64,000 nt of DNA from Candidatus Eiseniibacteriota bacterium (GTDB lineage Bacteria; Eisenbacteria; RBG-16-71-46; CAVPCR01). The DNA lies in assembly GCA_963823555.1 (NCBI GenBank), contig CAWGMA010000003.1, forward strand, positions 544,001 to 608,000. Direction: 5' to 3'. Of the stretch, positions 34,874-59,269 are shown piece after piece. Each line of letters begins with the position of its first letter. Position 1 is the first letter of the stretch. The notes beneath the pieces are model-generated. The model made no database searches. It was not told the DNA's origin and saw only the letters and a list, made by a program, of their open reading frames with translations. Position numbers and translations under genes: made by a program.

Positions 34874-35035
34874 CTGGGAGGGACTCATCCCTGGGGCCTG
34901 ATCAAGGCGAGCTACGGGCAGTAGGCGGGCGGGGGCGCACGTCGAATCGCTTGACACACGTCCGCCCGACCCGGTAGTTTATAGGCAGCAGCGTCGGCCG
35001 TAGACACGACGGCCATAGAAGACGACCTGTCACCA

Positions 35036-35172
35036 GACAGCGACCCGGCTGCGGAGCAGAAGGCGTTGTGGGTGTTGCTTCGGCACCCCGACGCCTTTTC
35101 CCGTCCTACCGCCGGAGCGGCACCCCCGACCCCTTCCTCTCCCCAGGCCGAGCGCCCTGGAGGGGATGGATG
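35036..35172 (+). promoter_or_regulatory. Structured leader, copy A (candidate RNA switch)
   Basis: CTGC-GGA-GCAG hairpin, long stem 35060-35097 with T tail, alternative partner 35117-35136, SD-sequestering hairpin before ATG 35170; homologous to 39714-39852. Confidence 0.65.
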
Positions 35173-35391
35173 GACTTCCTCCGAGACCCGGCGGTGATGA
35201 CGCCGGGGGAGCGGCTCACCGAACTGGCGGCGATCCTTGCCCAGGGGTACCTGCGGCTCCGCGCCCGACCCGAGATCGCGCTTCCCGCCGAGAGCGCCGA
35301 GAGCAGGCTGGACTCTCGGCCCGACCAGAGACCTCCATTGGACGCCGGGTTAGCGCCCGGAGACCCGGTTCGAGAGGAGGTCGTGGGATGA
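35170..35391 (+). CDS. Small hypothetical protein preceding DUF2924
   Basis: GGAGG SD; MTPGERLTELAAILAQGYLRL resembles small ORFs I associate with DUF2924 loci; ATGA overlap with the next gene. Confidence 0.6.
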   Translation: MDFLRDPAVMTPGERLTELAAILAQGYLRLRARPEIALPAESAESRLDSRPDQRPPLDAGLAPGDPVREEVVG

Positions 35392-35891
35392 AGGTGAACG
35401 TCGCCGCCGAATTCAGAGCTCTCGGGCGCATGACCGCTGGCGAGCTGCGGGAGAAATACCGGGCGGTCTTTGGCGAGGAGACGCGGTCGGGGAACCGGGA
35501 CTTCTTGCGGAAGCGGATCGCCTGGCGCATCCAGGCCCTGGCCGAGGGCGGCCTCTCTGAGCGCGCTCTCCGCCGGGCCGAGGAACTGGCCCGGGACGCC
35601 GACCTCCGCATCCGGGCGCCGAAGGGCGAGTCGTTCCCGAGCCATCCTGCTGCTGGAGACACGGTCGTCGGCCGGGTCAACGCGTCCCAGGATCGCCGGT
35701 TGCCGCTGCCGGGGACCGTGCTCGTGCGCCGGTATCGGGGCGAGACCGTCCAGGTGACCGTGCTCGACAACGGATTCGAGCACCAAGGCAAGACCTACAA
35801 GTCGTTGACGGCCGTCGCGCAGGCGATCACCAACACGCACTGGAACGGCTACCACTTCTTCGGCCTGCGCCGGAAGGGGGCCGCGTCGTGA
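35388..35891 (+). CDS. DUF2924 domain protein
   Basis: LRKRIAWRIQALAEGGLS...PGTVLVRRYRG...YKSLTAVAQAITNTHWNGYHFFGL. Confidence 0.88.
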   Translation: MKVNVAAEFRALGRMTAGELREKYRAVFGEETRSGNRDFLRKRIAWRIQALAEGGLSERALRRAEELARDADLRIRAPKGESFPSHPAAGDTVVGRVNASQDRRLPLPGTVLVRRYRGETVQVTVLDNGFEHQGKTYKSLTAVAQAITNTHWNGYHFFGLRRKGAAS

Positions 35892-37468
35892 GCGCGAAGC
35901 GTGGGGGGAAGAAGAACGGCGACCCCGCGACGCCGTCGGTCGTCAGGTGCGCAATCTACTGCCGGGTGTCTGTCGACAGAAGCCTCGACAACGGTGCGTT
36001 CACGAGCATCGATGCCCAGAGGGAGGCTGCTGAAGCCTACGTCGGAAGCCAGAAGCAGAAGGGCTGGACCGCCTTGACCGCGCATTACGACGACAGCGGA
36101 TGCTCGGGCGGGACGACGGAACGGCCTGCGCTCCAGCGGCTTCTAGCCGACGTGCGGGCGGGGAAAGTCGATTCGGTCGTCGTTTACAGACTCGACAGGT
36201 TCTCCCGCAGCCTTCTCGACTTCTCCAAACTCATGGAGGTTCTGGGCCACCACCAAGCATCTCTCGTCAGCGTTTCTGAGGCGTTCGACACCGCGACCTC
36301 GATGGGTCGGATGGTCATGCATCTGCTTGCCACCTTCGCCCAGTTCGAGCGGGAGACGATCGCCGAGAGAACGCGGGATAAAATGGGTGCTGCACGACGC
36401 CGAGGCCGATGGACCGGCGGCCACTTGCCTTTCGGCTTCGACCTAGACCCCGCCGCCGGGCGCCTCGTGGTCAACAACGCCGAGGCCGAGCGGGTGCGGG
36501 CGATCTTCCAGATGTACCTGGAGAAGCACTCGACCTTCGAGGTCCTGCGGGAACTGGCCCGCCGCCGATGGACCACGAAGCGGTGGACGACGCGGAAGGG
36601 GGAGGAGCGCGGCGGGAGAGCATTCGACAAGTCGAGGCTCTTGTACCTTCTCAAGAACGTCGTCTACATCGGCAAGGTGCGGTACGACGGAGTCGTTCAC
36701 GACGGCGCACACGAGGCGATCGTGGACGCCGACGTGTGGCAGCGAGTCCAGATGCTTATCGGACGAAACGCGGTTACAAGCGGCAGCGCTTTCCGAAACA
36801 AGCACGGCGCATTGCTCGGCGGGATCTTACGCTGCTCGAACTGCGACTGCGCAATGACGCCTTGCTACACAACCAAGAACAACCGGAGGTTTCGGTATTA
36901 CACGTGCTTGGTCGCACAACGTCACGGCTGGAACAAGTGTCCTGCCCCGTCGATTCCGGCGACCGAGATTGAGCGGTTCGTCGTCGAGCGCATCCGCGCG
37001 ATCGGCGCCGACCCGGCGCTGCGGGCCGAAGTGATCGCGCAGGCGAAGGCTGCAAGTGCATCACGAGCCGCCGAGTTGGAGCGCGAACGCCTGGACGCGG
37101 AGCGCGAGATGCGGCGCATCGCCGGCGAGATCCGGAAGGCCCTCGGGCGCGTCGAGGGCGCCGGGAACGGCGGCTCGTCGGCCACGACGCGGCTGGCCGA
37201 GTTGCAAGAGCAGGTGGCAGCAGTCGAGGACCGTGCCCGTCGTGTCCGAGATGCAATCGCCGCCCTCAACGCCGACCAGATGGACGAGAGCGCCCTCGTC
37301 TCCGCGCTGGAGCGGTTCGACCCGCTCTGGGAGACGCTCACGCCGAAGGAGCGCGCGCGGGCGATCCACCTGCTGGTCGAGCGCATCGCGTTCGACGGCG
37401 GCCGGGGGACGATCGCCATCACATTCCGGCCGGGTGGGATCAAGGCGCTCGTGGAGGGATCGAAGTGA
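35888..37468 (+). CDS. Large serine recombinase (resolvase, recombinase, zinc-ribbon and coiled-coil regions)
   Basis: AIYCRVS catalytic Ser, SGGTTERPALQRLL, VYRLDRFSRS, CSNC...YYTC, coiled coil. Confidence 0.93.
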   Translation: MSAKRGGKKNGDPATPSVVRCAIYCRVSVDRSLDNGAFTSIDAQREAAEAYVGSQKQKGWTALTAHYDDSGCSGGTTERPALQRLLADVRAGKVDSVVVYRLDRFSRSLLDFSKLMEVLGHHQASLVSVSEAFDTATSMGRMVMHLLATFAQFERETIAERTRDKMGAARRRGRWTGGHLPFGFDLDPAAGRLVVNNAEAERVRAIFQMYLEKHSTFEVLRELARRRWTTKRWTTRKGEERGGRAFDKSRLLYLLKNVVYIGKVRYDGVVHDGAHEAIVDADVWQRVQMLIGRNAVTSGSAFRNKHGALLGGILRCSNCDCAMTPCYTTKNNRRFRYYTCLVAQRHGWNKCPAPSIPATEIERFVVERIRAIGADPALRAEVIAQAKAASASRAAELERERLDAEREMRRIAGEIRKALGRVEGAGNGGSSATTRLAELQEQVAAVEDRARRVRDAIAALNADQMDESALVSALERFDPLWETLTPKERARAIHLLVERIAFDGGRGTIAITFRPGGIKALVEGSK

Positions 37469-37938
37469 CCACTGCGACACAGCGATTGGACCAGAGCGGC
37501 GGCGGCTCGTCGACCGTCGTGTTCAAGACTCACTTCCAGCGCGGGAATCGCGGCTGCCGCCGCCTGCGGGACGGCCCAGCGCCCGCGCCGCCGCCCGTCG
37601 AGCCGGGGCGCGTCCCGCGCATCAGCCGCTTGATGGCCCTCGCCATCCGCCTCGATGGGCTCGTCCGCTCGGGCGCCGTCCGCGACTACGCCGACCTGGC
37701 CAGGCTCGGACACGTGAGCCGGGCGCGGGTCACCCAGATCATGAACCTCCTAGCTTTGGCCCCGGACATCCAGGAGGCGCTCCTCTTCCTGCCGCGCACT
37801 GTCTCCGGCCGGGACCCAGTCAGGGAGCGCCAGGTGCGGCCGATAGCTGCCGTCGTGGACTGGGGGGGACAGCGCCGCCTGTGGCGGGATCTCCGGCACC
37901 GAGCGGGCCTGGACACCGAAGTGCAGGATGTCGCATGA
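37465..37938 (+). CDS. Hypothetical HTH-like protein coupled to the recombinase
   Basis: DYADLARLGHVSRARVTQIMNLLALAPDIQE; GTGA overlap with the recombinase stop. Confidence 0.75.
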   Translation: MTTATQRLDQSGGGSSTVVFKTHFQRGNRGCRRLRDGPAPAPPPVEPGRVPRISRLMALAIRLDGLVRSGAVRDYADLARLGHVSRARVTQIMNLLALAPDIQEALLFLPRTVSGRDPVRERQVRPIAAVVDWGGQRRLWRDLRHRAGLDTEVQDVA

Positions 37939-38081
37939 TCGTGGCACCGCGCCACCCGTGGCCACCGCCGTAGCCGGGGCCCGGCCACGCAATCGATAGA
38001 GGGGAGCCGTAGGGTCGCTCCCGAACGCCGCCCTGCTCGAGGCGGCTAGGCTCCCCTACCTCTCATCGAGCTAAAGGGCAC

Positions 38082-39065
38082 ATGAGCATGCCCAGTACCC
38101 AATTCGACGATGCCGAAGACCATGATCTCCCACAGTTCGGGCGTGATGCGGTGATACGCGTGCGCTTCGGTCTCCGCTACGACCCAAATGTCGAAAAGCA
38201 ATGGCCCGATCGAATCGTACAGCTGCGGGGAGCGATCTCACGCCTGGAACGAGTCAGAAGTGATACGCCAGATGCCTTTGAGCGCGCGTGTGTCACATTC
38301 CATGAATCGACGATGGGCAAAATAGCACGGTTCGTAGCGACTGGGCTCATAGGGTTCACGCACAAGTATGGGCGATGGGACGCCGTTGCCGACTACGAGA
38401 GACCCTTTATATCCCAGTACTTCTTGCTATTTCCACATTTGAAGCCCAAGCCACCGCGGCAGAAGCCAAAGGAGCTGGCGCCACATTTCTATTCAATCGC
38501 CGCGAAATGTGAGCACTTCAAGAGGCTTCTGAAGAACTTGCGCCAGTGTGATCAACAAGTACGAAAGCTGTGTACCGCAGAGGGCATCGACTATAGCCGT
38601 CTGTTCAGGAAGCTGGGAGAGGACCCTGTGCGCACCTTCGTTGGCAATGTGATCGAGTCACCACAGGTGTATGAGGTGTTGTGCGAGATAAGAGAGGTCA
38701 CGCCATCGGCATCCTCGCAAAAGATCGGGCAACGGGACTTCGAAATGGCGGTTATGAAATTCAGACTTGGCTGGGAAGTGCTGCAGTGGCACCTCATCCA
38801 ATGCGGTCTCATTCCGCCCTCGGTAGATGATCCGGCCGAAACCTATGAAGGGCCCGCTGCTGGCAACGACCTGCCCGACGTCTTAGTCGGGCAGGTACGA
38901 GCTGCATTCGAGGAGATCGAGGCGTTGCTCGAGGTTGATCGCCGCGGAAGGTACATAGAGAAGAACTACTTCGAGTGGTTCTGCGACCGGATGGCACTCG
39001 TTACGGGCACCACTTCCAGAACCGTGGCACAGAGAATCAGCGAGGACCGGAAGGGCACCCTATAG
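38082..39065 (+). CDS. Hypothetical protein (lower-GC cargo)
   Basis: 327-codon ORF, no motif recognised. Confidence 0.65.
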   Translation: MSMPSTQFDDAEDHDLPQFGRDAVIRVRFGLRYDPNVEKQWPDRIVQLRGAISRLERVRSDTPDAFERACVTFHESTMGKIARFVATGLIGFTHKYGRWDAVADYERPFISQYFLLFPHLKPKPPRQKPKELAPHFYSIAAKCEHFKRLLKNLRQCDQQVRKLCTAEGIDYSRLFRKLGEDPVRTFVGNVIESPQVYEVLCEIREVTPSASSQKIGQRDFEMAVMKFRLGWEVLQWHLIQCGLIPPSVDDPAETYEGPAAGNDLPDVLVGQVRAAFEEIEALLEVDRRGRYIEKNYFEWFCDRMALVTGTTSRTVAQRISEDRKGTL

Positions 39066-39281
39066 GCGCACTCCCCGGGGGTGGCAAGAAAAGGCTATGC
39101 CGTAAGTCATGCCACAACCATCAGATACCAGCTGCAAATTGTCACCGAGACCATCTTCAGCTGTATGGCTGGGACCGTCTGAGAGGCTGGCGGTGCTCGT
39201 CGGGCGTGGTGAAAACGCTCCGCGACCGGCGAGGCCCCCGCCAACCAAGCTGACGGGCAGGCCGTCCACGTGACGGCCACC

Positions 39282-39330
39282 GGCCCCCATGCTTCCCCTG
39301 GCGGGGCGGGAGCGTGGGGGCCTTTCTCTT
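39282..39330 (+). terminator. Intrinsic terminator/attenuator-like hairpin
   Basis: GGCCCCCATGCTTCC pairs with GGGAGCGTGGGGGCC (15 bp including G-T), followed by TTTCTCTT. Confidence 0.6.
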
Positions 39331-39372
39331 ACCGGTCTGCAAGCGGACCTATCTGGAGGTAGCACAACAACA

Positions 39373-39687
39373 ATGATGAAGTCACAACTGACACGGGCGC
39401 GAGAGCGGTTAGTAGAGCTCGCTCAGGAGCTCGACTTCGGCCAGATCGAAGGTTTGGTCGTGCGCAACGGCGACCCCGTCTTCACTCCGCCGCCTTGCGT
39501 CATGCGCGAGGTTAGAATGCACAGCGACGAGCCGCGAACTAGGCAGTGCGCATCGGACTTCAACTTGAAGCCCGAGGTGATCCACCTGCTTGCAGAAATG
39601 ACCACACTCGGGACGGGAATCATCGATCGAATAGACGTCAAGCATGGGCTGCCGTTTCGCATTCACATTAGGCAACCAATGAACTAG
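39373..39687 (+). CDS. Hypothetical protein of the element
   Basis: GGAGG SD; RLVELAQELDFGQIEGLVVRNGDPVF...IDVKHGLPF. Confidence 0.7.
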   Translation: MMKSQLTRARERLVELAQELDFGQIEGLVVRNGDPVFTPPPCVMREVRMHSDEPRTRQCASDFNLKPEVIHLLAEMTTLGTGIIDRIDVKHGLPFRIHIRQPMN

Positions 39688-39713
39688 ACCACGACAGAAA
39701 GAACAAAGCACTC

Positions 39714-39852
39714 GACAACGAGCTGGCCACGAAGTGGAGGCCGTTGTGGGTGTCGCCTCACGGCGATTCTCGCAACGGCCTTTGCTATCAGCGGCTCGTC
39801 ACTAGGCGAACACCCACACGGACTCCTCCCAGCACGGAGGAGATGCCGAATG
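39714..39852 (+). promoter_or_regulatory. Structured leader, copy B (candidate RNA switch)
   Basis: CCAC-GAA-GTGG hairpin, long stem 39738-39781 plus TT, alternative partner 39805-39826, CTCCTCC/GGAGGAG SD hairpin before ATG 39850. Confidence 0.65.
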
Positions 39853-40401
39853 GGTCAAGTTCCCCCGGACAACGGGTTCGATGAGTACGCCGCTTGCCTG
39901 ATCAGCCGCAAGGCCCGCCAACTTGTCGGCAAAGCGGGGCTCACCGCCGCCGACTGCCAGGATGTAGAGCAGGACCTGGCGCTGCACCTTCTCCAGCAAC
40001 GTCACAAGTTTGATCCCGCGCGAAGCGGCTTCCATACCTACGTCAGCAGGCTCGTCGACCGGCGGATCGCTTCGATCCTCCGCTGGCGCGGTGCTGCCAA
40101 GCGCGACTGGCGCGTGAACGGCCTCTCTCTCAACGCGCCAGTCGAGAGCGCCGATGGTGATGACGTCGAACTTGGTGACACGGTTGGTGCCAAAGACCCT
40201 CCTCTCGACCTACCTGTGGATCTGCAACGGGCGATAGACAGCCTGTCGCCGGACCTGCGAAGGCTGTGTGAACGGCTGAGGGAGGAATCGGCGTCAGAAG
40301 TGGCATTGAGGTTGGGCGTCTCCAGGGCGACCGTTCATGCGCGGATCGGGGTGATCCGGAGGGCCCTCCGGAAGAAGGGACTGCATGACTATCTGGCCTG
40401 A
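39850..40401 (+). CDS. Sigma-70 family (ECF-like) sigma factor of the element
   Basis: Region 2-like DCQDVEQDL...KFDPARSGFHTYV and region 4 HTH SASEVALRLGVSRATVHARI. Confidence 0.78.
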   Translation: MGQVPPDNGFDEYAACLISRKARQLVGKAGLTAADCQDVEQDLALHLLQQRHKFDPARSGFHTYVSRLVDRRIASILRWRGAAKRDWRVNGLSLNAPVESADGDDVELGDTVGAKDPPLDLPVDLQRAIDSLSPDLRRLCERLREESASEVALRLGVSRATVHARIGVIRRALRKKGLHDYLA

Positions 40402-40466
40402 CACTTTTCGAAGCTTTGGCGTATGTAAGGAGTAGAGGCAGGAACGTGAAAGGAGGAGCAAGCAGC

Positions 40467-40781
40467 ATGATCGCTGAGACATACAACTACCACATCGAAG
40501 GGAGGATCCCGTTCGAGGCCGTGGAGGAGTCCCTGCTGCTGGCCATCCTGGCGGCGGAGTGCCTGCATGGGACGCCGCAGGTGCGCCTGGACGCGGTCTT
40601 CAGCGCGGACTCGGCCAAGCGAGCCTGCGTCGTGGATGCCGGGACGGAGGTGGGGCGGGACATAGCGCGGCTGTTCACCGGGTTCTTGTCCCGCCAGTTC
40701 GGGGAAGACAACTTTCGGGTCGAGCGGGTGGGCGGGCAGCACGCCGGGCACCGTGATGCGGCGACCGGAGTGACGCAGTAG
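40467..40781 (+). CDS. Hypothetical protein
   Basis: AGGAGG SD; VEESLLLAILAAECLHG...FTGFLSRQFGEDNFRVER. Confidence 0.7.
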   Translation: MIAETYNYHIEGRIPFEAVEESLLLAILAAECLHGTPQVRLDAVFSADSAKRACVVDAGTEVGRDIARLFTGFLSRQFGEDNFRVERVGGQHAGHRDAATGVTQ

Positions 40782-40839
40782 GACCAAAGGGAACCCCGGC
40801 TCGCGGTGGCACGCAGCCGGGGTCACAGGAGACACTGAC

Positions 40840-41046
40840 ATGGAAACGGTAACGGAAAATAGGACCGTCGGTCAACCCCGTAGTGGAGAGCCCCGCTGCC
40901 GCCGGTGCGGCTGCGTGGATCGCGTCGGCTGGGTCGAGGGCATTGGCTGGCTCTGCGGTCGGTGCGCCAATCGAATCCTCGACCATGTCCTCGACCTCGA
41001 AGACCGCATCCTCGGGGCCTTCGGCGATGGGGTGGGCGGTGCCTGA
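40840..41046 (+). CDS. Small putative zinc-ribbon protein
   Basis: AGGAG SD; CRRC...CGRC. Confidence 0.45.
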   Translation: METVTENRTVGQPRSGEPRCRRCGCVDRVGWVEGIGWLCGRCANRILDHVLDLEDRILGAFGDGVGGA

Positions 41047-41064
41047 GACCACGGCGTTGCCCAA

Positions 41065-43578
41065 GTGCCGACGCCCGGCGACGGGGTGCCTGCCATGACC
41101 CCCGACCTCACCCTTGAAGGTGGCGTCGTCGAAAGCGGTGTCGGGAGGGCTTGCACCCACACGATGGCGCAACCGCAGGCGCCACCGAGCTACCGACTCG
41201 CCTTCACTGCCGAGGAACTGCGGGCTCGGCTTCCTGCCGAGCTTGTTGCACAGTCGCAGTGGGTTGCCTGGAGATTCGAGTGGCGTGATGGCAGGTGGAG
41301 CAAGGTGCCGGTCAATGCTCGCACCGATGGACGGGCCCGAAGCAACGATCCAAGTACCTGGGCCACGTTCGACGAGGCCATGGCCTTCCATGAGTGCACC
41401 CCAAGAAGCGCCGGCATCGGGTTCGTGTTCGCGGAGGCCGATCCGTTCGCCGGCGTCGACTTGGACGGCTGCGTGGCCGGGGCTGACCAGGAAGCCAGGG
41501 TCGAGGCGTGGGCCCGAGACTTGCTCGACGCCTTCGCGACCTATGCCGAGATCTCGCCGTCAGGGCATGGCGTCAAGCTCTTCCTCCAAGGGCGAGCCCC
41601 GCACAACGGACGCCGGGCTGGGTACCCGGTCGCGGGATCGGCGGTGGAGACGTACGACCGCACGCGCTTCTTCACGGTGACAGGGCTTCGGGTGCCGGGA
41701 ACGCCCCAGGTGCTTGGGGATGCCCAGGGTGCTTTGGACGACCTCATCGCCAAGGTGTGGCCGGTGCCCCAAGGCAACCGAGATGAGGAGATCCCAGCGG
41801 CTGCCCTTGCCGTCGACGATGAGGCGCTGGTCGCCGCCGCGCTCCGTGCCCGCAACGGCGCTGACTTCGAGCGGCTGTGGGCAGGCGACTGGAAGGGTCG
41901 CTACGGGTCGCCGAGCGAGGCCGATCTTGCTCTGTGCGGAATGCTCGCGTTCTACACGGGATCCGACCCCGAGCGGATCGCCCGCCTCTTCCAACGCTCC
42001 GGCCTCTGCCGCGAGAAGTGGCAGCGCGCCGATTACCGGGAAAGAACCATCACGAAGGCCCTCGACGGCCGGACCGAGTTCTACAGCGGGCCGAGGGCCG
42101 TGCTCGTGCTGCCGCCGTCGAATGGCGGTCATCCATCCCGCGCCCTGACATCAGGCAAGGATAGAAGGCGGGGGAAGCGGAGCGCGCGTCGTGCGGTTGG
42201 CGCAGGCGATCCCAGCCGGTTCTGGGAGGGGCGAGCGTTCCGTCCCGCGCTCCTCGCCGATGAACTCATGGCTCTCGACTCCTACATCTCCACTCCCGTA
42301 GCTGACGATGGTGTGGGCGCCTTCCTCTACGCCTACCGGGATGGCGTCTACCAACGTGCGGAGGAGGTCGCGAGTAAGAAGGCCGAGTCCCTCCTCGGCG
42401 TGCGCGCCGCAAATGCGCGCATCGAAGATGCGGTGAAGCTGATACGCCGGCGGGCCGCGAGCCCGCACGACGATCTGAACCCGAGCGGGCTTGACCTCAT
42501 CAATGTCCAGAACGGCATGCTCGACTGGAAGACGGGGAAGCTCAAACCCCACGATCCAACTTGCCTCTCCACGATCCGCATCCCGGTGCGGTTCGATCCC
42601 GCCGCCAAGTCGGAGATCATCGACCGAGTTCTTCAAGACTGGCTTCCGGGTGACGCGCTCGACCTGGCCGGAGAGATGCTCGGCTACCTGCTCATCCCGA
42701 CCCGCAAGCACCAGACCGCGTTCATGCTGGTCGGGGAAGGGGAGAACGGAAAGTCCACGTTCATCAATCTCACCCGTAGTCTGCTCGGGCGCGGCAATGT
42801 GTCGAGCGAGACGCTCCATGATCTGGAAGAGAACCGCTTCCGCGTGGCCTCGCTCTTCGGCAAGCTGGCGAACCTCTGTGCAGACATCGACGATCGGGCG
42901 CTGCAGTTCACGAGCGTCTTCAAGAAGATCACCGGGGACGACTCGCTCTCGGCCGAGCGCAAGCACCAGCACCCGTTTGACTTCGATCCCTTCGCCCGTT
43001 TGATCTTCTCAGCCAACACTCCCCCTGCCCCGCGCAACGACCGCACTCACGCCTTCTTTCGCCGCTGGGTGGTCGTCCCCTTCGACAACAAGTTCCGCGA
43101 CGGCGAGAAGCGGGACCGAGATCTACCGAAGAAGATCACGACCCCGGAGGCGCTCTCGGCCTTGCTCAATATCGCCGTCGCCGGGCTGCAGCGGCTGGAG
43201 GCGAGGGGCGAGTTTGCCCTGCCCGAGTCGGTGCGGCAGGCGGGTGAGAAGTACCGGCGGGAGGCCGACGCCGTTTACACGTTCATCAGCGAAGAGTGCG
43301 CGAAGGGCGGTCAGGATGCCCGCGTCTCTGCCACCGACCTCCAGAGATCGTTCCGCGCCTGGTGCGCAGAGAACGGGTACCGGAACGTTCCCCCGAAGAA
43401 GGCCCTGGAGCGGCAGTTGGTCGAACTGCTCGGCGCGGAGAAGGAGCGAGCACGGGTCGGGGGACGCAAGAACGCCGTGGTGGTTTGGCGCGGCATCACG
43501 TGCTCGTACTCACCCCCGGCCCAGGGGGAGGCCGGGGCGGATGGGTCCTCCCTGGCGCCGGAGGACCGGTGGCCATGA
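41065..43578 (+). CDS. Primase-polymerase fused to D5/SF3 helicase (P4-family phage/plasmid primase); start uncertain
   Basis: QWVAW...KVP, GVDLD, EISPSGHG prim-pol motifs; SEADLAL; INVQNGML; Walker A GEGENGKST; FSAN; FFRRW. Confidence 0.9.
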   Translation: MPTPGDGVPAMTPDLTLEGGVVESGVGRACTHTMAQPQAPPSYRLAFTAEELRARLPAELVAQSQWVAWRFEWRDGRWSKVPVNARTDGRARSNDPSTWATFDEAMAFHECTPRSAGIGFVFAEADPFAGVDLDGCVAGADQEARVEAWARDLLDAFATYAEISPSGHGVKLFLQGRAPHNGRRAGYPVAGSAVETYDRTRFFTVTGLRVPGTPQVLGDAQGALDDLIAKVWPVPQGNRDEEIPAAALAVDDEALVAAALRARNGADFERLWAGDWKGRYGSPSEADLALCGMLAFYTGSDPERIARLFQRSGLCREKWQRADYRERTITKALDGRTEFYSGPRAVLVLPPSNGGHPSRALTSGKDRRRGKRSARRAVGAGDPSRFWEGRAFRPALLADELMALDSYISTPVADDGVGAFLYAYRDGVYQRAEEVASKKAESLLGVRAANARIEDAVKLIRRRAASPHDDLNPSGLDLINVQNGMLDWKTGKLKPHDPTCLSTIRIPVRFDPAAKSEIIDRVLQDWLPGDALDLAGEMLGYLLIPTRKHQTAFMLVGEGENGKSTFINLTRSLLGRGNVSSETLHDLEENRFRVASLFGKLANLCADIDDRALQFTSVFKKITGDDSLSAERKHQHPFDFDPFARLIFSANTPPAPRNDRTHAFFRRWVVVPFDNKFRDGEKRDRDLPKKITTPEALSALLNIAVAGLQRLEARGEFALPESVRQAGEKYRREADAVYTFISEECAKGGQDARVSATDLQRSFRAWCAENGYRNVPPKKALERQLVELLGAEKERARVGGRKNAVVVWRGITCSYSPPAQGEAGADGSSLAPEDRWP

Positions 43579-43584
43579 CCCAAG

Positions 43585-43702
43585 TGTGTCGGTTGTGTCG
43601 ATTGTGTCAAAACCGCCTACTTCTCTCCCCGTTAAACAGTGCACTGGAAGCGCGTATAGGAGAAAAGTGGGGGGGACCGACACAACCGACACAATCGACA
43701 CA
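43585..43702. repeat. Inverted iteron clusters, candidate replication origin
   Basis: TGTGTC at 43585, 43594, 43603 and GACACA at 43679, 43688, 43697 (9-bp period). Confidence 0.75.
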
Positions 43703-43991
43703 GCGAGAGAGAAGGCAGGTACGACCCGTGGCCACCCACGGGTCCATAGCCGCCATGACGTGCGGCGCGCAGAAGTGAAGGCGATGCTGGCGGATCCCGC
43801 CGTTGCTGGCAGTGCCTTGACGAGGGCTGTCGCGGGATGCCTGGACTGGCAGCGGCACATGCTCCAAGTGCCCGAAGCGGTTCCGAAGGGCGACGCCCTA
43901 GGCGGATAGGAGATAGCCAGGGCTGGGACCGAGAACCCTACCGGCGTCAGTACGGGCCCACCCGGTTCCACGCCCCTCGAGGAGACAAGAG

Positions 43992-44531
43992 ATGCCTGAT
44001 CACATTACGGTTCGCGATACGTCCACCCTTCCCCCGCACAAGGAAGGCCAGTTTGCCGCCATTTGCGCCGACGTGATTGATCTCGGCCAACGCGTGGAGA
44101 CCTACCCCGGCTCCTCGCCGCGTGTCGTGAGGAAGGTGGGTCTGGTCTTCGTCACGACCGAGCACCGCCAGGATGGCAAACCCAGCACAGTGAGTACTGA
44201 GTTCACCGTATCCATGAACGAGCGAGCGGGTCTGCGGCGGTTCCTCGAGAGCTGGCGTGGGCGGTCCTACACACCAGACGAGACGGCGGGCGATGCTCCG
44301 TTGCGTCGCCTGGTCGGGCAACCAGCTCTTCTCACGCTCGAGAATCGGTGCAGTGCCAAAGGACGGAACTACGCCAAGATCGCGAGCATCGCGCCCTTGC
44401 CGAAGGGCAAGCCAGCCCCTGAGGTTAACGGGTACCGGCGCTCCCTTAGCTGGGAAGAGCGGAAGAAGCTCTATGAGGCCGAGGTGGCACGCCACATGGC
44501 GGGTCCTGGTGCCACCGCCGTGGGGCAGTGA
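43992..44531 (+). CDS. Phage-type hypothetical protein (possible ssDNA-binding/replication accessory)
   Basis: GAGGAG SD; EGQFAAICADVIDLG...SMNERAGLRRFLESWRG...YAKIASIAPLPKG resembles phage replication-module proteins. Confidence 0.6.
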   Translation: MPDHITVRDTSTLPPHKEGQFAAICADVIDLGQRVETYPGSSPRVVRKVGLVFVTTEHRQDGKPSTVSTEFTVSMNERAGLRRFLESWRGRSYTPDETAGDAPLRRLVGQPALLTLENRCSAKGRNYAKIASIAPLPKGKPAPEVNGYRRSLSWEERKKLYEAEVARHMAGPGATAVGQ

Positions 44532-44610
44532 TAGAGCTCGTGCACGTTGCTTACGCCTTCCAGGATTCAGGCTCCTGGCAATCACCGGACCAGAGCTGAG
44601 GAGAAGAGAA

Positions 44611-44961
44611 GTGTATAGAGAAGAACGCGAGACGGTGATCGTGGCCAACCTGGCCGATCTCGACGACGGCTTCTTCACCGTTGAGACCACAGAGAAAGGC
44701 GTGCTGGCTCGCCTGCGCCGCCTGGCCGGCGACCGCCTTCAAGTCGAGGGAAATCGGCCCTGGCTGTGCCGGGTCCCCGCTGACCTGTGGCGGGGGAACG
44801 CGCTCAGGGTCGGACGGCGCCTGAAGGCGACCGGGAGACCTTTCCAGAATCGCGTCCAGGCGTCAGGAACCCCGCGCACCGGCGCAAATCTGGAAGGGAA
44901 CGGTGTCGACCCGACCACAGGTATGGGTCGAGAGGATTCGCATGCAGAACTCCTGCAGTAG
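44611..44961 (+). CDS. Hypothetical protein
   Basis: GAGGAG upstream of GTG 44611; in-operon position. Confidence 0.4.
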   Translation: MYREERETVIVANLADLDDGFFTVETTEKGVLARLRRLAGDRLQVEGNRPWLCRVPADLWRGNALRVGRRLKATGRPFQNRVQASGTPRTGANLEGNGVDPTTGMGREDSHAELLQ

Positions 44962-45018
44962 GAGCAAGCGAGACGGCCCCCGCGTCACCGGAGGCCGTCG
45001 AGCGGGGACAGGGTCGTG

Positions 45019-45297
45019 CTAGCCGGTAGCCGCCTCGGTCTCGCTGAGGATCGCCTGCAGGGTCGGCACGTCCCGCCGTGCGGCAGCCAGGGCCACGGCG
45101 CGGACGAACCGGCTCGCCCGGGCCGGGCCTGCTGCGTCGTGGATCTCGTCGCGCTCGTCGGCCGAGAGCCTGAACGCGAACACGACCAGGTCCTCGGACG
45201 CCTTGGCTTTCGGCATCACGGTCTCGGTAGTGGCCTTCTTGGTCGCCGCCTCAGGGGCGGTCTCTTCCGTCGTGGCTGCTTGCTTCTTCGTACTCAT
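45019..45297 (-). CDS. Small putative DNA-binding protein (RHH-like)
   Basis: GGAGG SD on the minus strand; LVVFAFRLSADERDEIHDAAG...SRFVR strand-helix-helix pattern; divergent from the MTase. Confidence 0.55.
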   Translation of the reverse strand: MSTKKQAATTEETAPEAATKKATTETVMPKAKASEDLVVFAFRLSADERDEIHDAAGPARASRFVRAVALAAARRDVPTLQAILSETEAATG

Positions 45298-45386
45298 CTC
45301 ATTGCCCTCCGTACCCGGCCCCACGCCGGGCGTGCAACAACAAGGGCGCTGCTCGGGGACAACATCAAGGTAAAGAGAGGAAGAAA

Positions 45387-46797
45387 GTGAGGACCGCAAG
45401 GTCGCGAAAGCTCGCGCTTTGGTCGGCCCTGCCGCCGTATCTCGGTGGTAAGCGCCGCCTTGCCCCGCTCATCTTCCGGGAGATCGACCGCCTCATCCCG
45501 CGCCGCCACTGGCGCGGACTCACATTCCTCGACGGGTTCCTCGGCGGCGGGTCGGTCTCGCTCTACGCCAAGGCGCAGGGATTCACGGTCGTGGCGACCG
45601 ACATCGCGGAGCGGGCAATCACGGTAGGGGAGGCGCTCATCGCCAACTCGCGGGTTCGGCTGACCCGAGAGGACGTGCTTCGGTTAGCGAAGGACGATGG
45701 CGAGGCACCGGGCCGGGTCGAGACCGGATACGTACCGAGCACTTTCACGAAGGACCAGGCCCGCTTCCTCGACCGTGCTCTCGGGACCGCCGCTCGAAAC
45801 CCCCGACACCGCGAAGGCAGCACTCATCCGGCTGCTGGCTATCCGCGTCGCGCTGCTCGCTCACCCGATGAGCCAGGTGCGGGCGGGGACCATCCACCGA
45901 CTCTCGTCGGGCGAGTACGAGTCGATCACCGAGAGCTGCCGCTATCACTACGTCGACGGGTTACGGCTCATCCGTCCTGGGAAGTTGTGGGACCTGGCGC
46001 AGCAGTTGAACGCGGGTGTGTTCCAGGGCGAAGGCAAGGTGATCCACGCGAGCATTCTCGACGTGCTGCCAACAGTCGACGCCGCAGTAGTCTACTTCGA
46101 CCCGCCATATCCTGGCGTCATGTCATACGAGAAAGAGTACAAAGTCATCGACGAGATTCTCGAAGGCCGGTCTCGGCCGACGAGCCCGTTCACCGCGCGG
46201 GATGGCGCAACGATGCTCGACGCGCTCTTCAAGCGGGCGCAGCACATCCCGGTGTGGCTCCTGTCGCTCGGGAACGCGGTGGTCACGATCGAGGAGTTGG
46301 CGGCGAAGATGGCGCGCTTCGGTCGCCAGACCAAGGCGATCGCGATCCGGTATCAGCACCTGCCTGCCGTGGCGACCGAGGAGAAGAAGCGCGAGAACCG
46401 CGAGTTCCTGGTCGTGGGGTGGGATGCGGAGGCTCCGCTGCTTCGGCGGTCGTCAGTGCAGGGTGACCGGGCCGGCACCGGGATCGATCAGCCGAACCGA
46501 CTCGCCATCGTCGAGGATGACGCGAGCCTCGGTGGCACCGAGCTTCCGACCCTCAAGCCCAGCCTCGGCAATGGCGGTGAGAAGAGCAAGGCGAGCCTCG
46601 CCGAGAAGGCGGCTTCCAGCCTCGGGCTTCCCGTCCGGGTAGCGCAGGATAGCGTGGATGACCCAGGTGCCGGCGTCATCGAACCCGGCCTGGACTTCGA
46701 CCGTGAAGGGCGAGCTGTCGTCTTGCCGTCCCATGACCCAGACGTTCCCTTGGCAGGCGGCGCCGAGTCAAGCCGCACGAAGGAGAAGAGACTGTGA
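45387..46797 (+). CDS. DNA adenine methyltransferase (D12/alpha class), one apparent frameshift near 45800
   Basis: PPYLGGK, FLDGFLGGGSVS (SAM binding), then YFDPPY (catalytic) in the next frame. Confidence 0.85.
46453..46734 (-). CDS. Possible small antisense gene overlapping the MTase C-terminal extension
   Basis: 93-aa protein-like ORF with AAGGGA upstream; the overlapping MTase tail has no MTase character. Confidence 0.35.
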   Translation of the reverse strand: MGRQDDSSPFTVEVQAGFDDAGTWVIHAILRYPDGKPEAGSRLLGEARLALLTAIAEAGLEGRKLGATEARVILDDGESVRLIDPGAGPVTLH

Positions 46798-47508
46798 CCG
46801 ACGACACGAAGGCGCCTGTGGCGCACAAAGGGCGCGCCAGTGCGCGAGTTGGGCCGAAGATGGTACCCCTGGACGACCTGAGGCCACACCCGCTGAACTC
46901 GAACGTGATGCCCGAGGACTTGCGGGAGAAGCTCAAGGCGCACATCAAGCGCACGGGGCGGTATCCGTTCCTGGTGGTCCGCCCACACCCCGAGGAGCCA
47001 GGGCAAGTACCAGGTCCTCGACGGCCACCACCGGGTCGAGGTGCTCCGCGAACTCGGCTACACCGAGGCCCGCTGCGACGTGTGGGACGTGGACGACCGC
47101 GAGGCGAAGCTGCTGCTCGCCACGCTGAACCGGCTTGCAGGGCCAGGACCTGCCCATCCGCCGGGCCCAGCTCATCCACGAGCTGCTCGGGCGAGATGAG
47201 CGTCGCCGACCTGGCCGGGCTCCTCCCCGAGACCGACAAGCAGATCGAGGAGCTGCACGCGCTGCTTGGAGTTCCCGGCCGAGGAGATCGCCGCGCTCCT
47301 CGACGCCGAGGCCGAGGAGGCCGAGAAGGTCCTGCCGCGGGTCATGAGCTTCGTCGTGACCCCCGAGCAGGAGGAGATGATCGAGCAGGCGGTCGAGCTG
47401 GCGAGCGACGGCACCCCGGGCCGGGACCGGAAGGCGCGAGGCCTCGCGAACCTCGCCAGGCACTTCCTGAAGGAAGGGGCCGATGCAGACGCACTCGAAG
47501 AAGCGTGA
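46794..47508 (+). CDS. ParB/Srx N-terminal domain protein (split by indels)
   Basis: VPLDDLRPHPLN...LVVRP...YQVLDGHHR reconstructed across frames. Confidence 0.8.
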
Positions 47509-48052
47509 GGAAGCCCGTCGGCTCTATCTCACCGGCGAGATGACCACGAACGCCGAGATCGCTGCCCGGCTCAAGGCGAAGCCGCACACGGTCGGCAGGT
47601 GGCGCCGGGAAGAGGACTGGGACGGGCTTCGCCTGAAGATCGACCGCCGGGCGGCAGAACTGTTCGTCGAGAAGATCGCCACCGATCGGGTGACCTTGAA
47701 CGTGCGGCACTACAGGCTCTGGGAACTGATTCTGGCGAAGCTGATGGAAGACCTGAAGGCGAAGCACGTCCTCGATGTCAGAGACATGGAACGGATCGCG
47801 GGCATCTTGGATCGGGCCCAGAAGGGGCAGCGGTTGGCCAAGGGGATGAGCGTAGCCGGCGAGACCGAGGAGGCCATCCGAGCCGAAGCGCAGGCCGAGA
47901 TCCGCAGGCTCATCGACGTGTTCATCGACGCCGTCAAGGAGAACGTGAGCGATGAAGAGACGCGGGATCGCATCCGCCGCACGATCCTCGATGCACTACC
48001 TTCGGAAGAGGACACGGGAACTGGCGACGGCGACAACGCGCTCGTTCAGTGA
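47483..48052 (+). CDS. Putative terminase small subunit (N-terminal HTH)
   Basis: REEARRLYL...NAEIAARLKAKPHTVGRWRREEDW; directly upstream of the large subunit. Confidence 0.65.
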   Translation: MQTHSKKREEARRLYLTGEMTTNAEIAARLKAKPHTVGRWRREEDWDGLRLKIDRRAAELFVEKIATDRVTLNVRHYRLWELILAKLMEDLKAKHVLDVRDMERIAGILDRAQKGQRLAKGMSVAGETEEAIRAEAQAEIRRLIDVFIDAVKENVSDEETRDRIRRTILDALPSEEDTGTGDGDNALVQ

Positions 48053-49592
48053 TCCACTTGCCGCGTGGGCGGTGAAACGGATCCGGCTCGACGGCTCGCC
48101 CTTTCGCTTCGAGGGCCACGAGTACCTGCGGGCGATCTACGACGACACGTCGCCGCACGTCGTCGTCCCGAAGGCGGCGCAGATCGGTGGCACCACCTGG
48201 GCGATCCTGCGCTCCGTCCATGCCTGCCTCTCAGGTCTCAACGTCATGTACTTCTTCCCGACCCGGACCGATGTGCTCGACTTCTCGAAGTCCCGGGTGT
48301 CGCCGCTTCTTGGCCGACAACCCGTTCCTCGCCAAGATGATGACCGACACCGACACCGCTGGGCTCAAGCGGATCGGGGAAGCGCATCTCTACCTGCGCG
48401 GGATGCAGTCGACCGTCGGCATGAAGTCGGTGCCGGCCGACATGATCGTCTTCGATGAACTGGACGAGGCCACGCCCGAGGCGAAGGCCATGGCCCGGGA
48501 GCGGCTCGCGCACTCGCGACTACAAGCGGATCATCGAGCTGTCGAACCCGACCCTGCCGGACTACGGCATCGACGAGAGCTACCAGGCGTCGGACCAGCG
48601 CCACTGGACCCTGAAGTGTCCCGCCTGCGGTCACTGGACGGCTCTCGACAGGGAGTTCCCGACGAAGCTGGGCGAGGAGGTGAAGATCATCCTGCCCCGC
48701 CCCGATGGCACCTTCTACCGAGCCTGTCCGAAGTGCTCGGCGGAGCTGGATCTGGCGGCAGGTGAGTGGGTGGCTGACTTCCCCGACCGCCCGATCCACG
48801 GCTACCGCATCAGCCAGCTGTTCAGCGACAAGGTCGACCCCGGCGAGATCTTGCACGAGTACCGCACCACCCGCTTCCCGGACCGGTTCTACAACCTGAA
48901 GATCGGGATCCCCTGGGCCGACCTGGAACGCCGCCTCGATATGTCGACGTGTCCTCGCTTGCTGCAGCGACGACACCATGGAAGACGAGGCGCAGAGCCA
49001 GGGGACGTACTGGATGGGGGTCGACACCGGCAGCGCCTTCCACGTCGTCGTCCTCAAGCACGAGAGCGGGGACACGGACGGTGATGGCCTGAGGCAGGTC
49101 CGACTGGTCCACCTCGCCGTCTGCCACGACTTCTCTGACCTCGATGCGATCATGAAGCGCTTCAGGATCTTCCGCTGCGTCATCGACGGGTTGCCCGAGA
49201 CCCACGCCACCCGGGACTTCGCCAAGCGCCACCGAGGCCACGTGTTCATGTGCTTCTTCAACGAGCACCAGCGGGGCGAGATGAAGTGGGATCGAGAGGC
49301 GCACACCGTGCAGGTCAACCGCACCGAGGCCCTCGATGCCTCACGGGCGGCGGTCCGGGACAAGAAGGTCATCCTGCCGCGCCGGCTGCCCAGTCGTCGA
49401 GACGTTCGCCCGGCACATGGCGTCCGACGCCAAGGTGCTCGATGAGGACGAAGAGACGGGGGCGAAGAAGTACCGGTACGTCCGGACCGGCGAGGACCAC
49501 TTCTCCCTGGCGTTCACTTACGCCTGGATGGCGGCTGAGCGGCACGGGGGGCCGAGTCAGCCGCGGGTCATCCGCATCGACCTGAACGATAG
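47952..49592 (+). CDS. Phage terminase large subunit, gpA-like (split by indels; ends approximate)
   Basis: VVVPKAAQIGGT (Walker A variant), IVFDELDE (Walker B), SNPT, CPACGH/CPKC, nuclease WMGVDTG and EDHF. Confidence 0.83.
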
Positions 49593-49880
49593 GCGGCTCC
49601 GGAAGCCTGAGCTGGCCCGGGCAGAGGCTCTTGGGGCGGTCGCTCCTCAGTGGCGTTTCGAGGCGGGGACGACCGTGGTAGCATGTGAGAGGCTCGCAGG
49701 ACGGTTGATTGAGGAGGGCTACGCTCATGTCGTTGTCGAAACTCATACTCGCCGTTGGCTCTGTTCTCGTCATGACCAGCGCTGCGGACGCGGCTACGAT
49801 CCGCGTTCCATCAGAGCAGCCTACCATTCAGGCGGGGATCAATGCCGCGACCAACGGAGATACCGTGCTTGTCGCGCCTG

Positions 49881-51453
49881 GGCAGCGTCTCGGTAGTTGT
49901 TGAATAAGGTCTGACGTTCTCTCCGGACCTCTTGAATCCTAGCGTTTCGAGCCGTTTGCTTCCATCTTCAGAATGCGGTCTGCGATTTCCTTCCTCCTGG
50001 CCGCGGTGAGCCCTGGATGGGCTGTTCGCCCGATGATCGCTGAGAACCGGCTTCACCAGAGGCCCCAGGATCAACGTTCTCGAGTCGGTCCGACCCGTAG
50101 CACCCCCCTGTTTCGGGGTGGCGGGGGCTCGGCGCGGATCCCGGGAGTCTCATGCGAGCTTCCTCTGCGCGCCGTCGATCATCTCCTCGAGCTTATGGTA
50201 CCCGTCGATCTTGCGCAGGCGGATCGCACCAGAAGCGATCAGACCGAACAGCAAGGTCAGCGCCGCCGCCTCGGTCGGGAACGACCCCTGGGTCTTGGTC
50301 CGCCGGCGGAACTCCTCGTTGATCCGCTCGATCAGGTTCGTCGTGCGCAGACTCTTCCACATCGCGGCGGGGAAGTTGTAGAAGGTCAGCAGCTCCCGCC
50401 CCGCCTCCTCGAGGCTGACGACGACCTCCGGCACCAGCGGCTGCCACTTCCGGCAGAACGCCGCGTAGGCCTTCTCGGCCGCCTCTCGGTTCTCGGCGTG
50501 GGTGATCGCCTCATAGTCGCGCTTGAGCTCCGCGTGGCAGTGCTTCGGCGCCTTGGCCAGCAGGTTCTCCAGCTTATGCCATGTGCACCTCTGCAGCTCG
50601 GCCTCCGGCCACGCCGCCCGCACCGCACGGATCAGGCCCGCGTTGCCGTCGAGCAGCACCAGCCGCGGCGCGACCAGGTTCCGCGCGACGAGTCCCTCGA
50701 TCACTCCCGCCCACGCCTTCAAGCTCTCGCTCGGCGCCAGTCGCAGCTCGAGCAGCTCCTTCTCGCCGGTGGCCTTCACCCCGACCACCACCTGCACCGG
50801 CACCTTGACCACCCGCCGGGCCAGCCGCACCGGCAGCCGCATCGCATCCAGGATCACGATCGCGTACGACTCGCGGCTCAGGTCGCGTCCTCGCCACATG
50901 GCGAACAGATCCTGCAGCCGCTTGACCACCCGCGACACCGCACTCCGGGACATCGCCGTCCCCTCGACCAGCGGCTTCAGCGCCAGTCGGATCTTCCGCG
51001 TGTTCGTCCCCGTCAGGTAGCTCGTGACCAAGGCCGCGTCCAACCGCCGCGTGCGCCGCGCGTAGCGCCGGACGATGTCGCTCGTGAACTCCTGCGTCCC
51101 CGTCGTGGTCCGCAAGCGAGCGCGGGGCACCTCCACCTCCACCGGGCCGAACGAGGTCATCAACCGCCGCGGCGGCCGGCTGCCGTGCCGGTAGCCGGTG
51201 CGGGCCTCGGTGCGCTCCCGGAGGCTGGCCCCCAGGGCACCCTCCACTTCCTCGTCGAGGATGTCGACGATCATCTCCCGGACCCGGCCCCGGACGAGGG
51301 TCTCGAGATCATGGAAATCCGCTGGCGGCGCCAGCAACTGCGCAGTACGATCTTTCACGGCGTATTCCTCCGGTTAAGCCCATACTGGGCTTTGCTTTAT
51401 GACACCCGGAGAATACGCCATTTCCCTTTCTCAACAAGTCCCGGGACGCTGCC
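49881..51453 (-). mobile_element. IS256-family insertion sequence, complete
   Basis: Imperfect terminal IRs GGCAGCGTCtCGGtAgTTGTTGA / GGCAGCGTCcCGGgAcTTGTTGA; 8-bp TSD CGCGCCTG at 49873-49880 and 51454-51461. Confidence 0.93.
50150..51358 (-). CDS. IS256-family (Mutator-type) transposase
   Basis: GYRHG, VPRAR, ILDA, LLDG, QRCTWH, TTNLIERINEEFRRR. Confidence 0.95.
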   Translation of the reverse strand: MKDRTAQLLAPPADFHDLETLVRGRVREMIVDILDEEVEGALGASLRERTEARTGYRHGSRPPRRLMTSFGPVEVEVPRARLRTTTGTQEFTSDIVRRYARRTRRLDAALVTSYLTGTNTRKIRLALKPLVEGTAMSRSAVSRVVKRLQDLFAMWRGRDLSRESYAIVILDAMRLPVRLARRVVKVPVQVVVGVKATGEKELLELRLAPSESLKAWAGVIEGLVARNLVAPRLVLLDGNAGLIRAVRAAWPEAELQRCTWHKLENLLAKAPKHCHAELKRDYEAITHAENREAAEKAYAAFCRKWQPLVPEVVVSLEEAGRELLTFYNFPAAMWKSLRTTNLIERINEEFRRRTKTQGSFPTEAAALTLLFGLIASGAIRLRKIDGYHKLEEMIDGAQRKLA

Positions 51454-53848: not shown

Positions 53849-53950
53849 GGGGTCTGGGATCCGTGGCGAGCTTCACTCCTTCCTCTCGCGGATGGTGGCC
53901 CCGCCGCCCGTCGCCCGGCCGCCAGCGGGTCCCCCTCAGGCCGACCCCGG

Positions 53951-58084: not shown

Positions 58085-58092
58085 AATCCGTC

Positions 58093-59267: not shown

Positions 59268-59269
59268 CG

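Follow-up and report, generated by a model that had tools for sequence, protein, structure and literature searches.

The satellite phage P4 is an integrative element with a D5/alpha-type primase-helicase and no capsid genes of its own. It also carries no terminase, and the terminase of phage P2 packages P4 DNA through a cos site (PMC10690885). Here we describe a candidate satellite of another kind in a 64,000-nt stretch of the genome of a Candidatus Eiseniibacteriota bacterium (GCA_963823555.1, contig CAWGMA010000003.1, positions 544,001–608,000 of the forward strand; Genome Taxonomy Database lineage Bacteria; Eisenbacteria; RBG-16-71-46; CAVPCR01), hereafter the window. The window element has in common with P4 a primase-helicase, genes for integration and the lack of capsid genes, and differs from it in encoding a terminase.

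Phage-inducible chromosomal islands (PICIs), including the Staphylococcus aureus pathogenicity islands (SaPIs), resemble the window element in being integrative islands of 15–26 kb with an integrase, a primase-helicase, a regulator, a small terminase subunit (TerS), cargo and no capsid genes. PICIs encode at most TerS or a TerS-redirecting protein and take the large terminase subunit (TerL) from their helper (PMC10690885). In contrast, the window element has a full TerL, a ParB/Noc-like protein, a methylase, a sigma-like factor and a large serine recombinase rather than a tyrosine integrase. At the level of gene content, the likeness lies in an integrase, a replication module of its own and the absence of virion genes. 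Capsid-forming PICIs (cf-PICIs) share with the window element the possession of both TerS and TerL. However, cf-PICIs borrow nothing but tails, since they also encode a major capsid protein, a protease, a portal, head-tail connectors and an HNH endonuclease (PMC10690885), and neither the window element nor its relatives yielded any gene of this set.

Two further groups are relevant. The PICI-like elements (PLEs) of Vibrio integrate through a large serine recombinase and have their own replication (PMC6002521, PMC7145576), and are expected to depend on their helper, ICP1, for packaging (10.1101/2024.04.22.590561). Serine recombinase and replication genes are common to the PLEs and the window element, but only the latter has its own terminase. 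Virion-encapsidated integrative mobile elements (VEIMEs) of marine origin and tycheposons are, like the window element, small integrative elements of uncultured bacteria with a primase-helicase, a tyrosine or serine recombinase and sometimes TerS. VEIMEs encode small-subunit terminases and are expected to obtain TerL from helpers, and the available text describes no TerL-carrying form that lacks a capsid (PMC9618062). The published satellites for which this could be checked carry either TerS at most (PICIs, VEIMEs) or TerL together with a full head module (cf-PICIs, MiniFlayer-type elements) (PMC10690885, PMC12822802, PMC9618062). A literature search, limited to available article text and excluding supplements, found no description of a TerL-bearing, capsid-less satellite; a capsid-less terminase island is apparently undescribed in print.

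We suggest that the window holds one copy of a conserved family of integrative elements with their own integration and replication genes, a full terminase and no capsid genes, and that the element is likely a phage satellite, a reading in which our confidence is middling. Somewhat more tentatively, we propose that the family forms a new class of satellite in which TerS, TerL, the ParB/Noc-like protein and the methylase are kept under the element's own regulators and no shell is made, such that only the empty procapsids of a helper would be needed. The class would span at least two phyla, its replication, integration and cargo modules being swapped around a nearly fixed core of 4–5 kb.

The packaging core and its relatives

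Gene families were assigned with Pfam and PHROGs, and tRNAs with ARAGORN and Rfam. An initial annotation, made from the DNA letters and their open reading frames (ORFs), had proposed a gene order running from a DUF2924 gene to TerL without virion genes, and the Pfam and PHROGs matches bear this out. The core, at the TerL end of this order, consists of:

45019..45399, minus strand: small basic protein, divergent from the packaging genes (130-nt segment conserved in 24 loci)
45387..46797, plus strand: D12-class N6-adenine DNA methyltransferase, in two frames (PF02086 in the first frame; phrog_27806 in both)
46794..47508, plus strand: ParB/Noc-like protein, with about four frame breaks (recognised via a profile of relatives)
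47483..48052, plus strand: TerS with an N-terminal helix-turn-helix (HTH) (Terminase_5, 21 bits against a cut-off of 20.3; TerS and DNA-binding PHROGs)
47952..~49600, plus strand: gpA-type TerL, in four frames (GpA_ATPase; phrog_675)

The window corresponds to C3:544001-608000 of its own genome (4.62 Mb in 4 contigs, 67% G+C, estimated completeness 92.5%), to which the contigs labelled C2, C3 and C4 belong; L numbers denote loci of relatives, and G006 is a genome of the same genus. With the open 446-aa TerL frame of a second copy on C4 as query, 848 of 8000 scored candidate proteins matched at E ≤ 0.001, and the best 119 besides the query were 65–76% identical and mostly 400–572 aa long. An alignment of 20 TerL homologues, used as a probe, retrieved 55 loci from species-representative genomes, several of which have 2–7 copies, and 117 TerL relatives from viral contigs, 80 of which were kept. 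The titles of the retrieved records name Candidatus Eisenbacteria/Eiseniibacteriota, Acidobacteriota, Planctomycetota and others. Within the window's phylum, TerL is carried by 20 of 206 species genomes (15 of 121 high-quality genomes; 16 of 83 genera); 19 near-full-length matches are free of stops, and two others contain 1–3.

In about 50 loci of genomes from Eiseniibacteriota, Acidobacteriota and other groups, the methylase, ParB-like protein, TerS and TerL again follow one another in this order, often accompanied by a small tyrosine recombinase. Across the 65 loci in which synteny was counted (L017–L081, many shortened by contig ends), full-length copies number 38 for the methylase, 41 for the ParB-like protein, 48 each for TerS and TerL, and 26 for a tyrosine recombinase found downstream. 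The DUF2924-recombinase pair occurs upstream in both orientations among relatives, a serine recombinase directly follows TerL in L043, and the window's small ORFs recur in some relatives' loci. In three IMG/VR records of 17.2–17.8 kb, labelled provirus or linear, TerL lies near one end and the serine recombinase at, or close to, the opposite end. Loci whose TerL is at most ~51% identical share no other core gene, and in a quick TerL tree the family is one clade (SH-aLRT 95) on which host-phylum labels are clustered (4 and 2 changes, vs 11.0 and 9.4 in shuffles). Median ratios of nonsynonymous to synonymous substitution (dN/dS; pairwise, NG86, 119–120 pairs per gene, dS near 1) are 0.23 for TerL, 0.34 for TerS, 0.17 for the ParB-like protein, 0.26 for the methylase and 0.22 for the tyrosine recombinase. 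The core genes are under purifying selection.

TerS is 51–74% identical in relatives. The TerL pieces of the window are collinear with residues 24–121, 182–339, 356–496 and 501–556 of the 576 of phrog_675, and the packaging ATPase family PF05876 (GpA_ATPase) matches two of them; the TerL of L019 reaches 79.3 bits (cut-off 25.6). An AlphaFold2 model of the TerL family has a mean predicted local distance difference test score (pLDDT) of 61, with residues 330–525 mostly at ~85–95. The model matches the whole large terminases of D6E, HK97, T4 (gp17) and Sf6 with probability 1.0, and residues 330–525 match the terminase nuclease domains of G20c (template-modelling score 0.63), P74-26, P22, SPP1 and RB49. 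The model thus indicates that both the ATPase half and the C-terminal RNase-H-like nuclease half are present; a TerL profile compared with PDB sequences gave no match. Both subunits of the full terminase named in the initial annotation are present; in the window, TerL is spread over four frames and the methylase over two. In L019 the methylase is a single gene of 370 aa.

The same annotation had named a ParB-like protein. This assignment holds only through the relatives. A profile built from 18 homologues matches chains of Noc (E 3.8e-6 and 2.4e-5) and of ParB (E 0.0037), but single sequences, the window copy included, have no Pfam match. Frame switches in the window copy fall at 46998, 47131, 47189 and 47265. 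Separate ParB and methylase genes are replaced in three loci (L034:7766-9490, L067:8033-9992, L031:6179-7663) by a ParB-methylase fusion of another family (phrog_498 / phrog_620).

The segment encoding the small basic protein has a codon-like pattern and carries minus-strand ORFs in 17 loci; an ORF called on the opposite strand, orf45016(+), is spurious, the real gene being 45019-45399 on the minus strand. The protein is rich in lysine and alanine and has a conserved C-terminal domain of one strand plus three helices, modelled by AlphaFold2 with a pLDDT of 89–97 at residues 71–126. It gave no Pfam match (best E 0.013, one member each), no PDB sequence match and no Foldseek match at E < 2. We regard it as a putative DNA-binding regulator; a ribbon-helix-helix fold would be a guess.

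How intact is the window copy? In the 4.2-kb stretch from methylase to TerL, the frame path given by codon scores makes 12 switches, three of which are gene junctions; in the primase gene it makes none. Compared with the 84%-identical C4 copy, the window TerL has single extra bases at 48307, 48517, 48949 and 49393, which do not lie in long homopolymers. Short contigs of two public sequencing runs lack the base at 48948, but these come from diverged relatives. The genes rpoB and rpoC (window 1-7717) are also split over several frames, the path needing 34 switches in 7.7 kb, and fusA-tuf (8832-12424) has no switch inside genes. Because rpoB and rpoC are broken too, the breaks in the core probably stem from the assembly, which has many single-base errors that cluster in certain conserved stretches.

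The search for virion genes

The family has no recognisable head or tail genes around its core. In the window, the main ORFs at 49973-63454 have no portal, capsid or tail match in Pfam or PHROGs. When the genome (92.5% complete) was searched in all six frames, none of the families Phage_portal_2, Phage_portal, SPP1_portal, Phage_capsid and Phage_cap_E turned up; the search for Portal_Mu carries no information, as its control gave no match. By tblastn, the window's genome has no match at E ≤ 0.01 to the portal, protease or capsid proteins of the nearest true phages, and no close family locus matches structural proteins of these phages. The initial annotation had pointed to the DNA beyond the 64 kb as a place where such genes might lie, and the rest of the contig and genome yielded none of these portal or capsid families.

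In relatives, we scanned 347 ORFs flanking the core of close homologues (TerL identity at least 58%): 146 downstream (at least 170 aa, no more than 9 kb from TerL, 27 loci), 8 in L075/L076, 107 upstream (at least 230 aa, 32 loci) and 86 selected by codon-position G+C. This last set was added since choosing the longest ORF had picked wrong frames, the long ORFs just upstream of the relatives' methylase being R/L/G-rich wrong frames in G+C-rich DNA. None of the 347 matches a portal, capsid, protease, scaffold or connector family. Matches in the "head and packaging" category are the core's own TerS and secondary matches of Sak4-like ATPases, and the three "tail" matches are repeat-type, in large secreted proteins of L028 and L066, with none in the window. 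As a control, portal or head genes come right after TerL in 9 of 13 loci whose TerL is 35–49% identical. Portal and capsid genes behind close homologues had been named at the outset as the sign of an ordinary decayed prophage; only the distant TerL relatives have them.

Integration, replication and the region after TerL

Upstream of the core, the window carries:

33370..33444, plus strand: tRNA-Asn (GTT), likely target of the serine recombinase (ARAGORN; Rfam, 70.6 bits)
33436..33721, plus strand: 286-bp left-arm repeat, putative attL or element arm (begins in the last 9 nt of the tRNA)
35166..35891, plus strand: DUF2924 protein, the usual partner gene of the recombinase (PF11149, E 8.7e-45)
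35888..37468, plus strand: large serine recombinase, 526 aa, open frame (Resolvase, Recombinase, Zn_ribbon_recom; phrog_95 integrase, E 1.1e-117)
37465..37938, plus strand: small protein after the recombinase (phrog_14161, E 2.3e-17)
39289..39687, plus strand: conserved small protein (tblastn, 32–44% identity in at least 10 relatives, same position)
39850..40401, plus strand: sigma-70/ECF-like factor (Sigma70_r2, 27.3 bits against a cut-off of 24; phrog_1740, E 2.4e-12)
40416..40781, plus strand: conserved small protein after the sigma gene (tblastn, 41–49% identity in L019, L037, L049 and L065)
41065..43578, plus strand: prim-pol / D5-type primase-helicase, 837 aa, open frame (DUF5906, NrS-1 polymerase HBD, D5_N, Pox_D5; phrog_1829, E 9.8e-135)
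43585..43702, no strand: iteron-like 9-mers in two inverted clusters flanking a 64-bp spacer (tandem repeat finder scores 41 and 47)

All three Pfam domains of the serine recombinase exceed their cut-offs within the one 526-aa frame. DUF2924 adjoins a recombinase in at least 14 relatives, and in relatives, too, the phrog_14161 protein lies 3′ of the recombinase. The tRNA-Asn is the only one in the genome, and the Rfam search gave no RNA match apart from tRNA. Five further copies of the 286-bp repeat, 81–87% identical, lie at C3:619432, C3:635130, C4:6870, C2:716470(-) and C2:696579(-), with a shorter copy at C2:706537, beside a second DUF2924-recombinase pair (C2:706537-708878) that starts with a partial tRNA 3′ end. 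Each copy is preceded by a pseudo tRNA T-arm and acceptor 3′ end with a 5-nt insertion in the T-arm. A DUF2924 gene and a recombinase come after just two of the copies, and the rest may be att-like remnants of islands that have decayed or become stacked. In G006, the ~130 nt behind the tRNA-Asn have the same sequence, and next to them lies a pair of DUF2924 and serine recombinase genes that is 86% identical to the second pair of the window's genome. Given this arrangement and the position of the repeat behind pseudo tRNA ends, the sequences suggest that the target is probably the 3′ part of tRNA-Asn, with the left end at ~33419–33444.

Two ORFs in this part of the window, 33755-34873 (372 aa) and 38082-39065 (327 aa), have no family match and no homologue in related loci; in the second, the codon score is low and the G+C content reduced. 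Both may be cargo specific to the strain, or not genes at all. An HTH protein had been placed after the recombinase, and this did not hold up, as no HTH family matches 37465-39687 in Pfam at E ≤ 0.01. The protein at 39289..39687 has neither a Pfam nor a PHROG match. Homologues of the sigma factor are present only in some relatives (L019, L037, L053 and L065), and replication genes vary widely among relatives, including prim-pol/D5, DnaB-like, DnaG-like, RecD-like, Sak4, SSB and ERCC4 nuclease genes. Iterons next to the prim-pol/D5 helicase had also been reported, correctly: the motif TGTGTCGRT has 5 exact copies in the 64-kb window, all at 43585-43702 (2 on the plus and 3 on the minus strand), compared with 0.83 expected by chance, and 0 of 100 shuffles reach 5. 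The clusters lie directly 3′ of the primase stop codon and form a putative replication origin.

After TerL, the window continues with:

49728..52873, plus strand: secreted right-handed beta-helix protein, cargo or flank, split by an insertion sequence (signal-peptide-like start; Beta_helix, E 6.6e-18)
49881..51453, minus strand: IS256-family insertion sequence, 1573 bp (Transposase_mut, E 6.4e-82)
52904..53848, plus strand: PD40 beta-propeller, cargo or flank (Pfam)
55081..57909, minus strand: S8 subtilase with FlgD_ig tail, cargo or flank (Pfam)
58096..59487, minus strand: small Xer-like tyrosine recombinase, in two pieces, 58096-58572 and 59299-59487 (Phage_integrase fragment)

The beta-helix gene starts ~130 bp after the likely end of TerL. 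The secreted-protein cargo reported directly after the terminase is present from 49728, but the IS256 element that splits its gene had been overlooked, as had the frame breaks, the small basic protein, the downstream tyrosine recombinase and the probable role of the tRNA as target. Since there is an 8-bp target duplication (49873-49880 and 51454-51461) and the beta-helix gene is split, this element arrived by simple insertion and does not mark a deletion. In the diverged C4 copy, TerL and the beta-helix gene meet at the same junction, with no insertion sequence. A second IS256 copy, 99.5% identical, lies at C3:623872-625444, and contigs of sequencing runs X1 and X5 end at the ends of the IS256 element. 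In both congeneric loci (window 49728-52873; L045:3100-6830), an insertion sequence interrupts the beta-helix gene beside the core, but the elements and their sites differ.

In relatives, the tyrosine recombinase is a protein of 194 aa that consists of the catalytic domain only and is convergent with TerL. In 17 of 30 family loci it follows TerL at a distance of 0.05–9 kb, separated from it by variable genes, and its profile matches XerC-like, XerA and XerD proteins over the catalytic domain only. Residues R40, K71, H142, R145, H168 and Y177, which we take to be the catalytic set, are invariant in 15 sequences. By tblastn, the two window pieces align to residues 36–194 and 1–63 of the 194-aa L019 protein. 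By analogy with the relatives, the right end of the element may lie beyond these pieces, near 59500. A search for a displaced 3′ fragment of tRNA-Asn, as a mark of attR, found only chance matches of 12–13 nt and the C2 copy.

Two kinds of gene recur near the core elsewhere in the family. A pair of phrog_7872 and phrog_17239 genes follows TerL in two loci from different phyla (L028:12851-14475 and L035:13230-16003), and L031, L035 and L058 have reverse transcriptases close to the core, the TerL of L058 being only distantly related. Both may be exchangeable defence-type cargo.

The next 60 kb of contig past the window contain more insertion sequences, recombinase fragments and secreted beta-helix proteins. 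Mosaic regions of this kind (window 58000-64000, C3:608000-645000, C4:1-20000 and C2:696000-725716) combine short repeats and fragments of tyrosine recombinases with IS256- and IS3-type elements and with numerous genes for secreted beta-helix or subtilase proteins that have FlgD_ig tails, and contigs C2 and C4 terminate within them. Truncated copies of TerL lie in this DNA at C4:18639-19934, C4:1-127 and C2:723119-723331.

A proposed cycle and competing explanations

If the window element is a satellite, how might it work? The serine recombinase would insert and excise the element at the 3′ part of tRNA-Asn, and replication by the prim-pol/helicase would start at the iterons (43585-43702). Control of the packaging operon may fall to the sigma-like factor and the small basic protein. 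TerS would recognise a site on the element, and TerL would cut there and dock on a foreign portal, pumping the replicated DNA into the empty capsids of a helper phage. The methylase could protect the element's DNA in the next host, and the stretch from TerL to the tyrosine recombinase would be exchangeable cargo.

Several observations weigh against this proposal. Copies in the same genome share nucleotide similarity only over the 4–5 kb core, and in G006 the core is ~500 kb away from the recombinase at tRNA-Asn. Compared with L045, which is the most closely related locus, the core (window 45000-49800, L045:6500-12000) is inverted from the small basic protein through TerL, while its two flanks, an orf44257-like stretch on one side and the beta-helix/PD40 genes on the other, are the same. 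A search for flanking inverted repeats, as would mark an invertible segment, found only imperfect pairs of 14–30 nt, none of them convincing. It may be, therefore, that the mobile or conserved unit is the core rather than an element of 15–26 kb, and that the other modules are shuffled around it. TerL is 60–80% identical across two phyla, which is unusually tight if it must fit fast-evolving helper portals. With TerL, the ParB-like gene and the methylase broken in frame, the window copy may be dead, although rpoB and rpoC are broken too. Virion proteins encoded by ORFs of fewer than 150 aa, or with novel capsid folds, would escape our scans. Finally, neither a helper phage nor an excised circle, an attP/attB joint or an encapsidated form was observed. 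The initial annotation had called for the mapping of circular junctions; in public sequencing data, no RNA run was among the matches listed, the best-matching DNA run had 0.18 of the sampled words, four runs gave low-depth contigs of relatives, and these contained no credible excision or circle joint, only one long skip with a 21-letter side. Contigs of 13–15 kb from one multi-copy genome were considered as circles and rejected, having no terminal overlap and only the core in common.

Some of these points fit another explanation, that the core serves the element or its host without any capsid, either by processing concatemers for a different transfer route or by interfering with the packaging of phages, and is no motor for packaging the element's own DNA. 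The restriction of nucleotide-level conservation to the core, the high conservation of TerL across phyla and the distance that can separate the core from any recombinase would all be consistent with such a role, as would the absence of resident phage head genes from the window's genome and the presence of methylases, reverse transcriptases and nucleases among the relatives' neighbouring cargo. However, PADLOC identified no defence family apart from orphan methylase models, no conjugation genes are among the ORFs scanned, and TerL retains the motor and nuclease folds and is always accompanied by TerS, as in packaging enzymes. We consider a capsid-independent role doubtful, yet a serious competitor of the satellite reading.

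A second possibility is an arrangement like that of gene transfer agents, in which the window would supply the terminase module and other parts of the chromosome the capsid and tail genes. The terminase genes are intact in most relatives, and the multiple copies in several genomes would be compatible with it. However, the six-frame searches of the 92.5% complete genome found none of the portal and capsid Pfam families (the silent Portal_Mu control aside), and the tblastn searches with portal, protease and capsid proteins of the nearest true phages were equally negative at E ≤ 0.01. The facts at the level of the family also make such an arrangement unlikely, and we give it very little credence.

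The least probable explanation, a slight chance at best, is an ordinary temperate prophage that lost its head-tail module here, for example through the IS256 insertion, and is decaying: the several frames of TerL, ParB and methylase, the split tyrosine recombinase, the insertion sequence 280 bp after TerL and the truncated TerL copies on C4 and C2 would fit it, but the frame breaks are even denser in rpoB and rpoC, the IS256 element is a simple insertion at a junction that the C4 copy has without it, and about 50 independent loci, whose genes are intact and under selection, show the same layout without capsid genes, which excludes a one-off decayed prophage. Of the two readings that the initial annotation had left side by side, a satellite-like element or a prophage without its head-tail module, the first is thus favoured at the level of the family, and the second, as an ordinary decayed prophage, is not.

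If the window element is indeed a satellite, it would represent a different strategy of hijacking, since known satellites take the large terminase of their helper and these islands would bring the whole motor without a capsid. The conserved core offers a simple marker for finding such islands, and the part of TerL that docks on the portal could identify their helpers. As virus-prediction tools already label these islands as proviruses, they inflate prophage counts. The islands would also constitute a route of gene flow in the Eiseniibacteriota and Acidobacteriota, phyla that are abundant, mostly uncultured and have few known phages.

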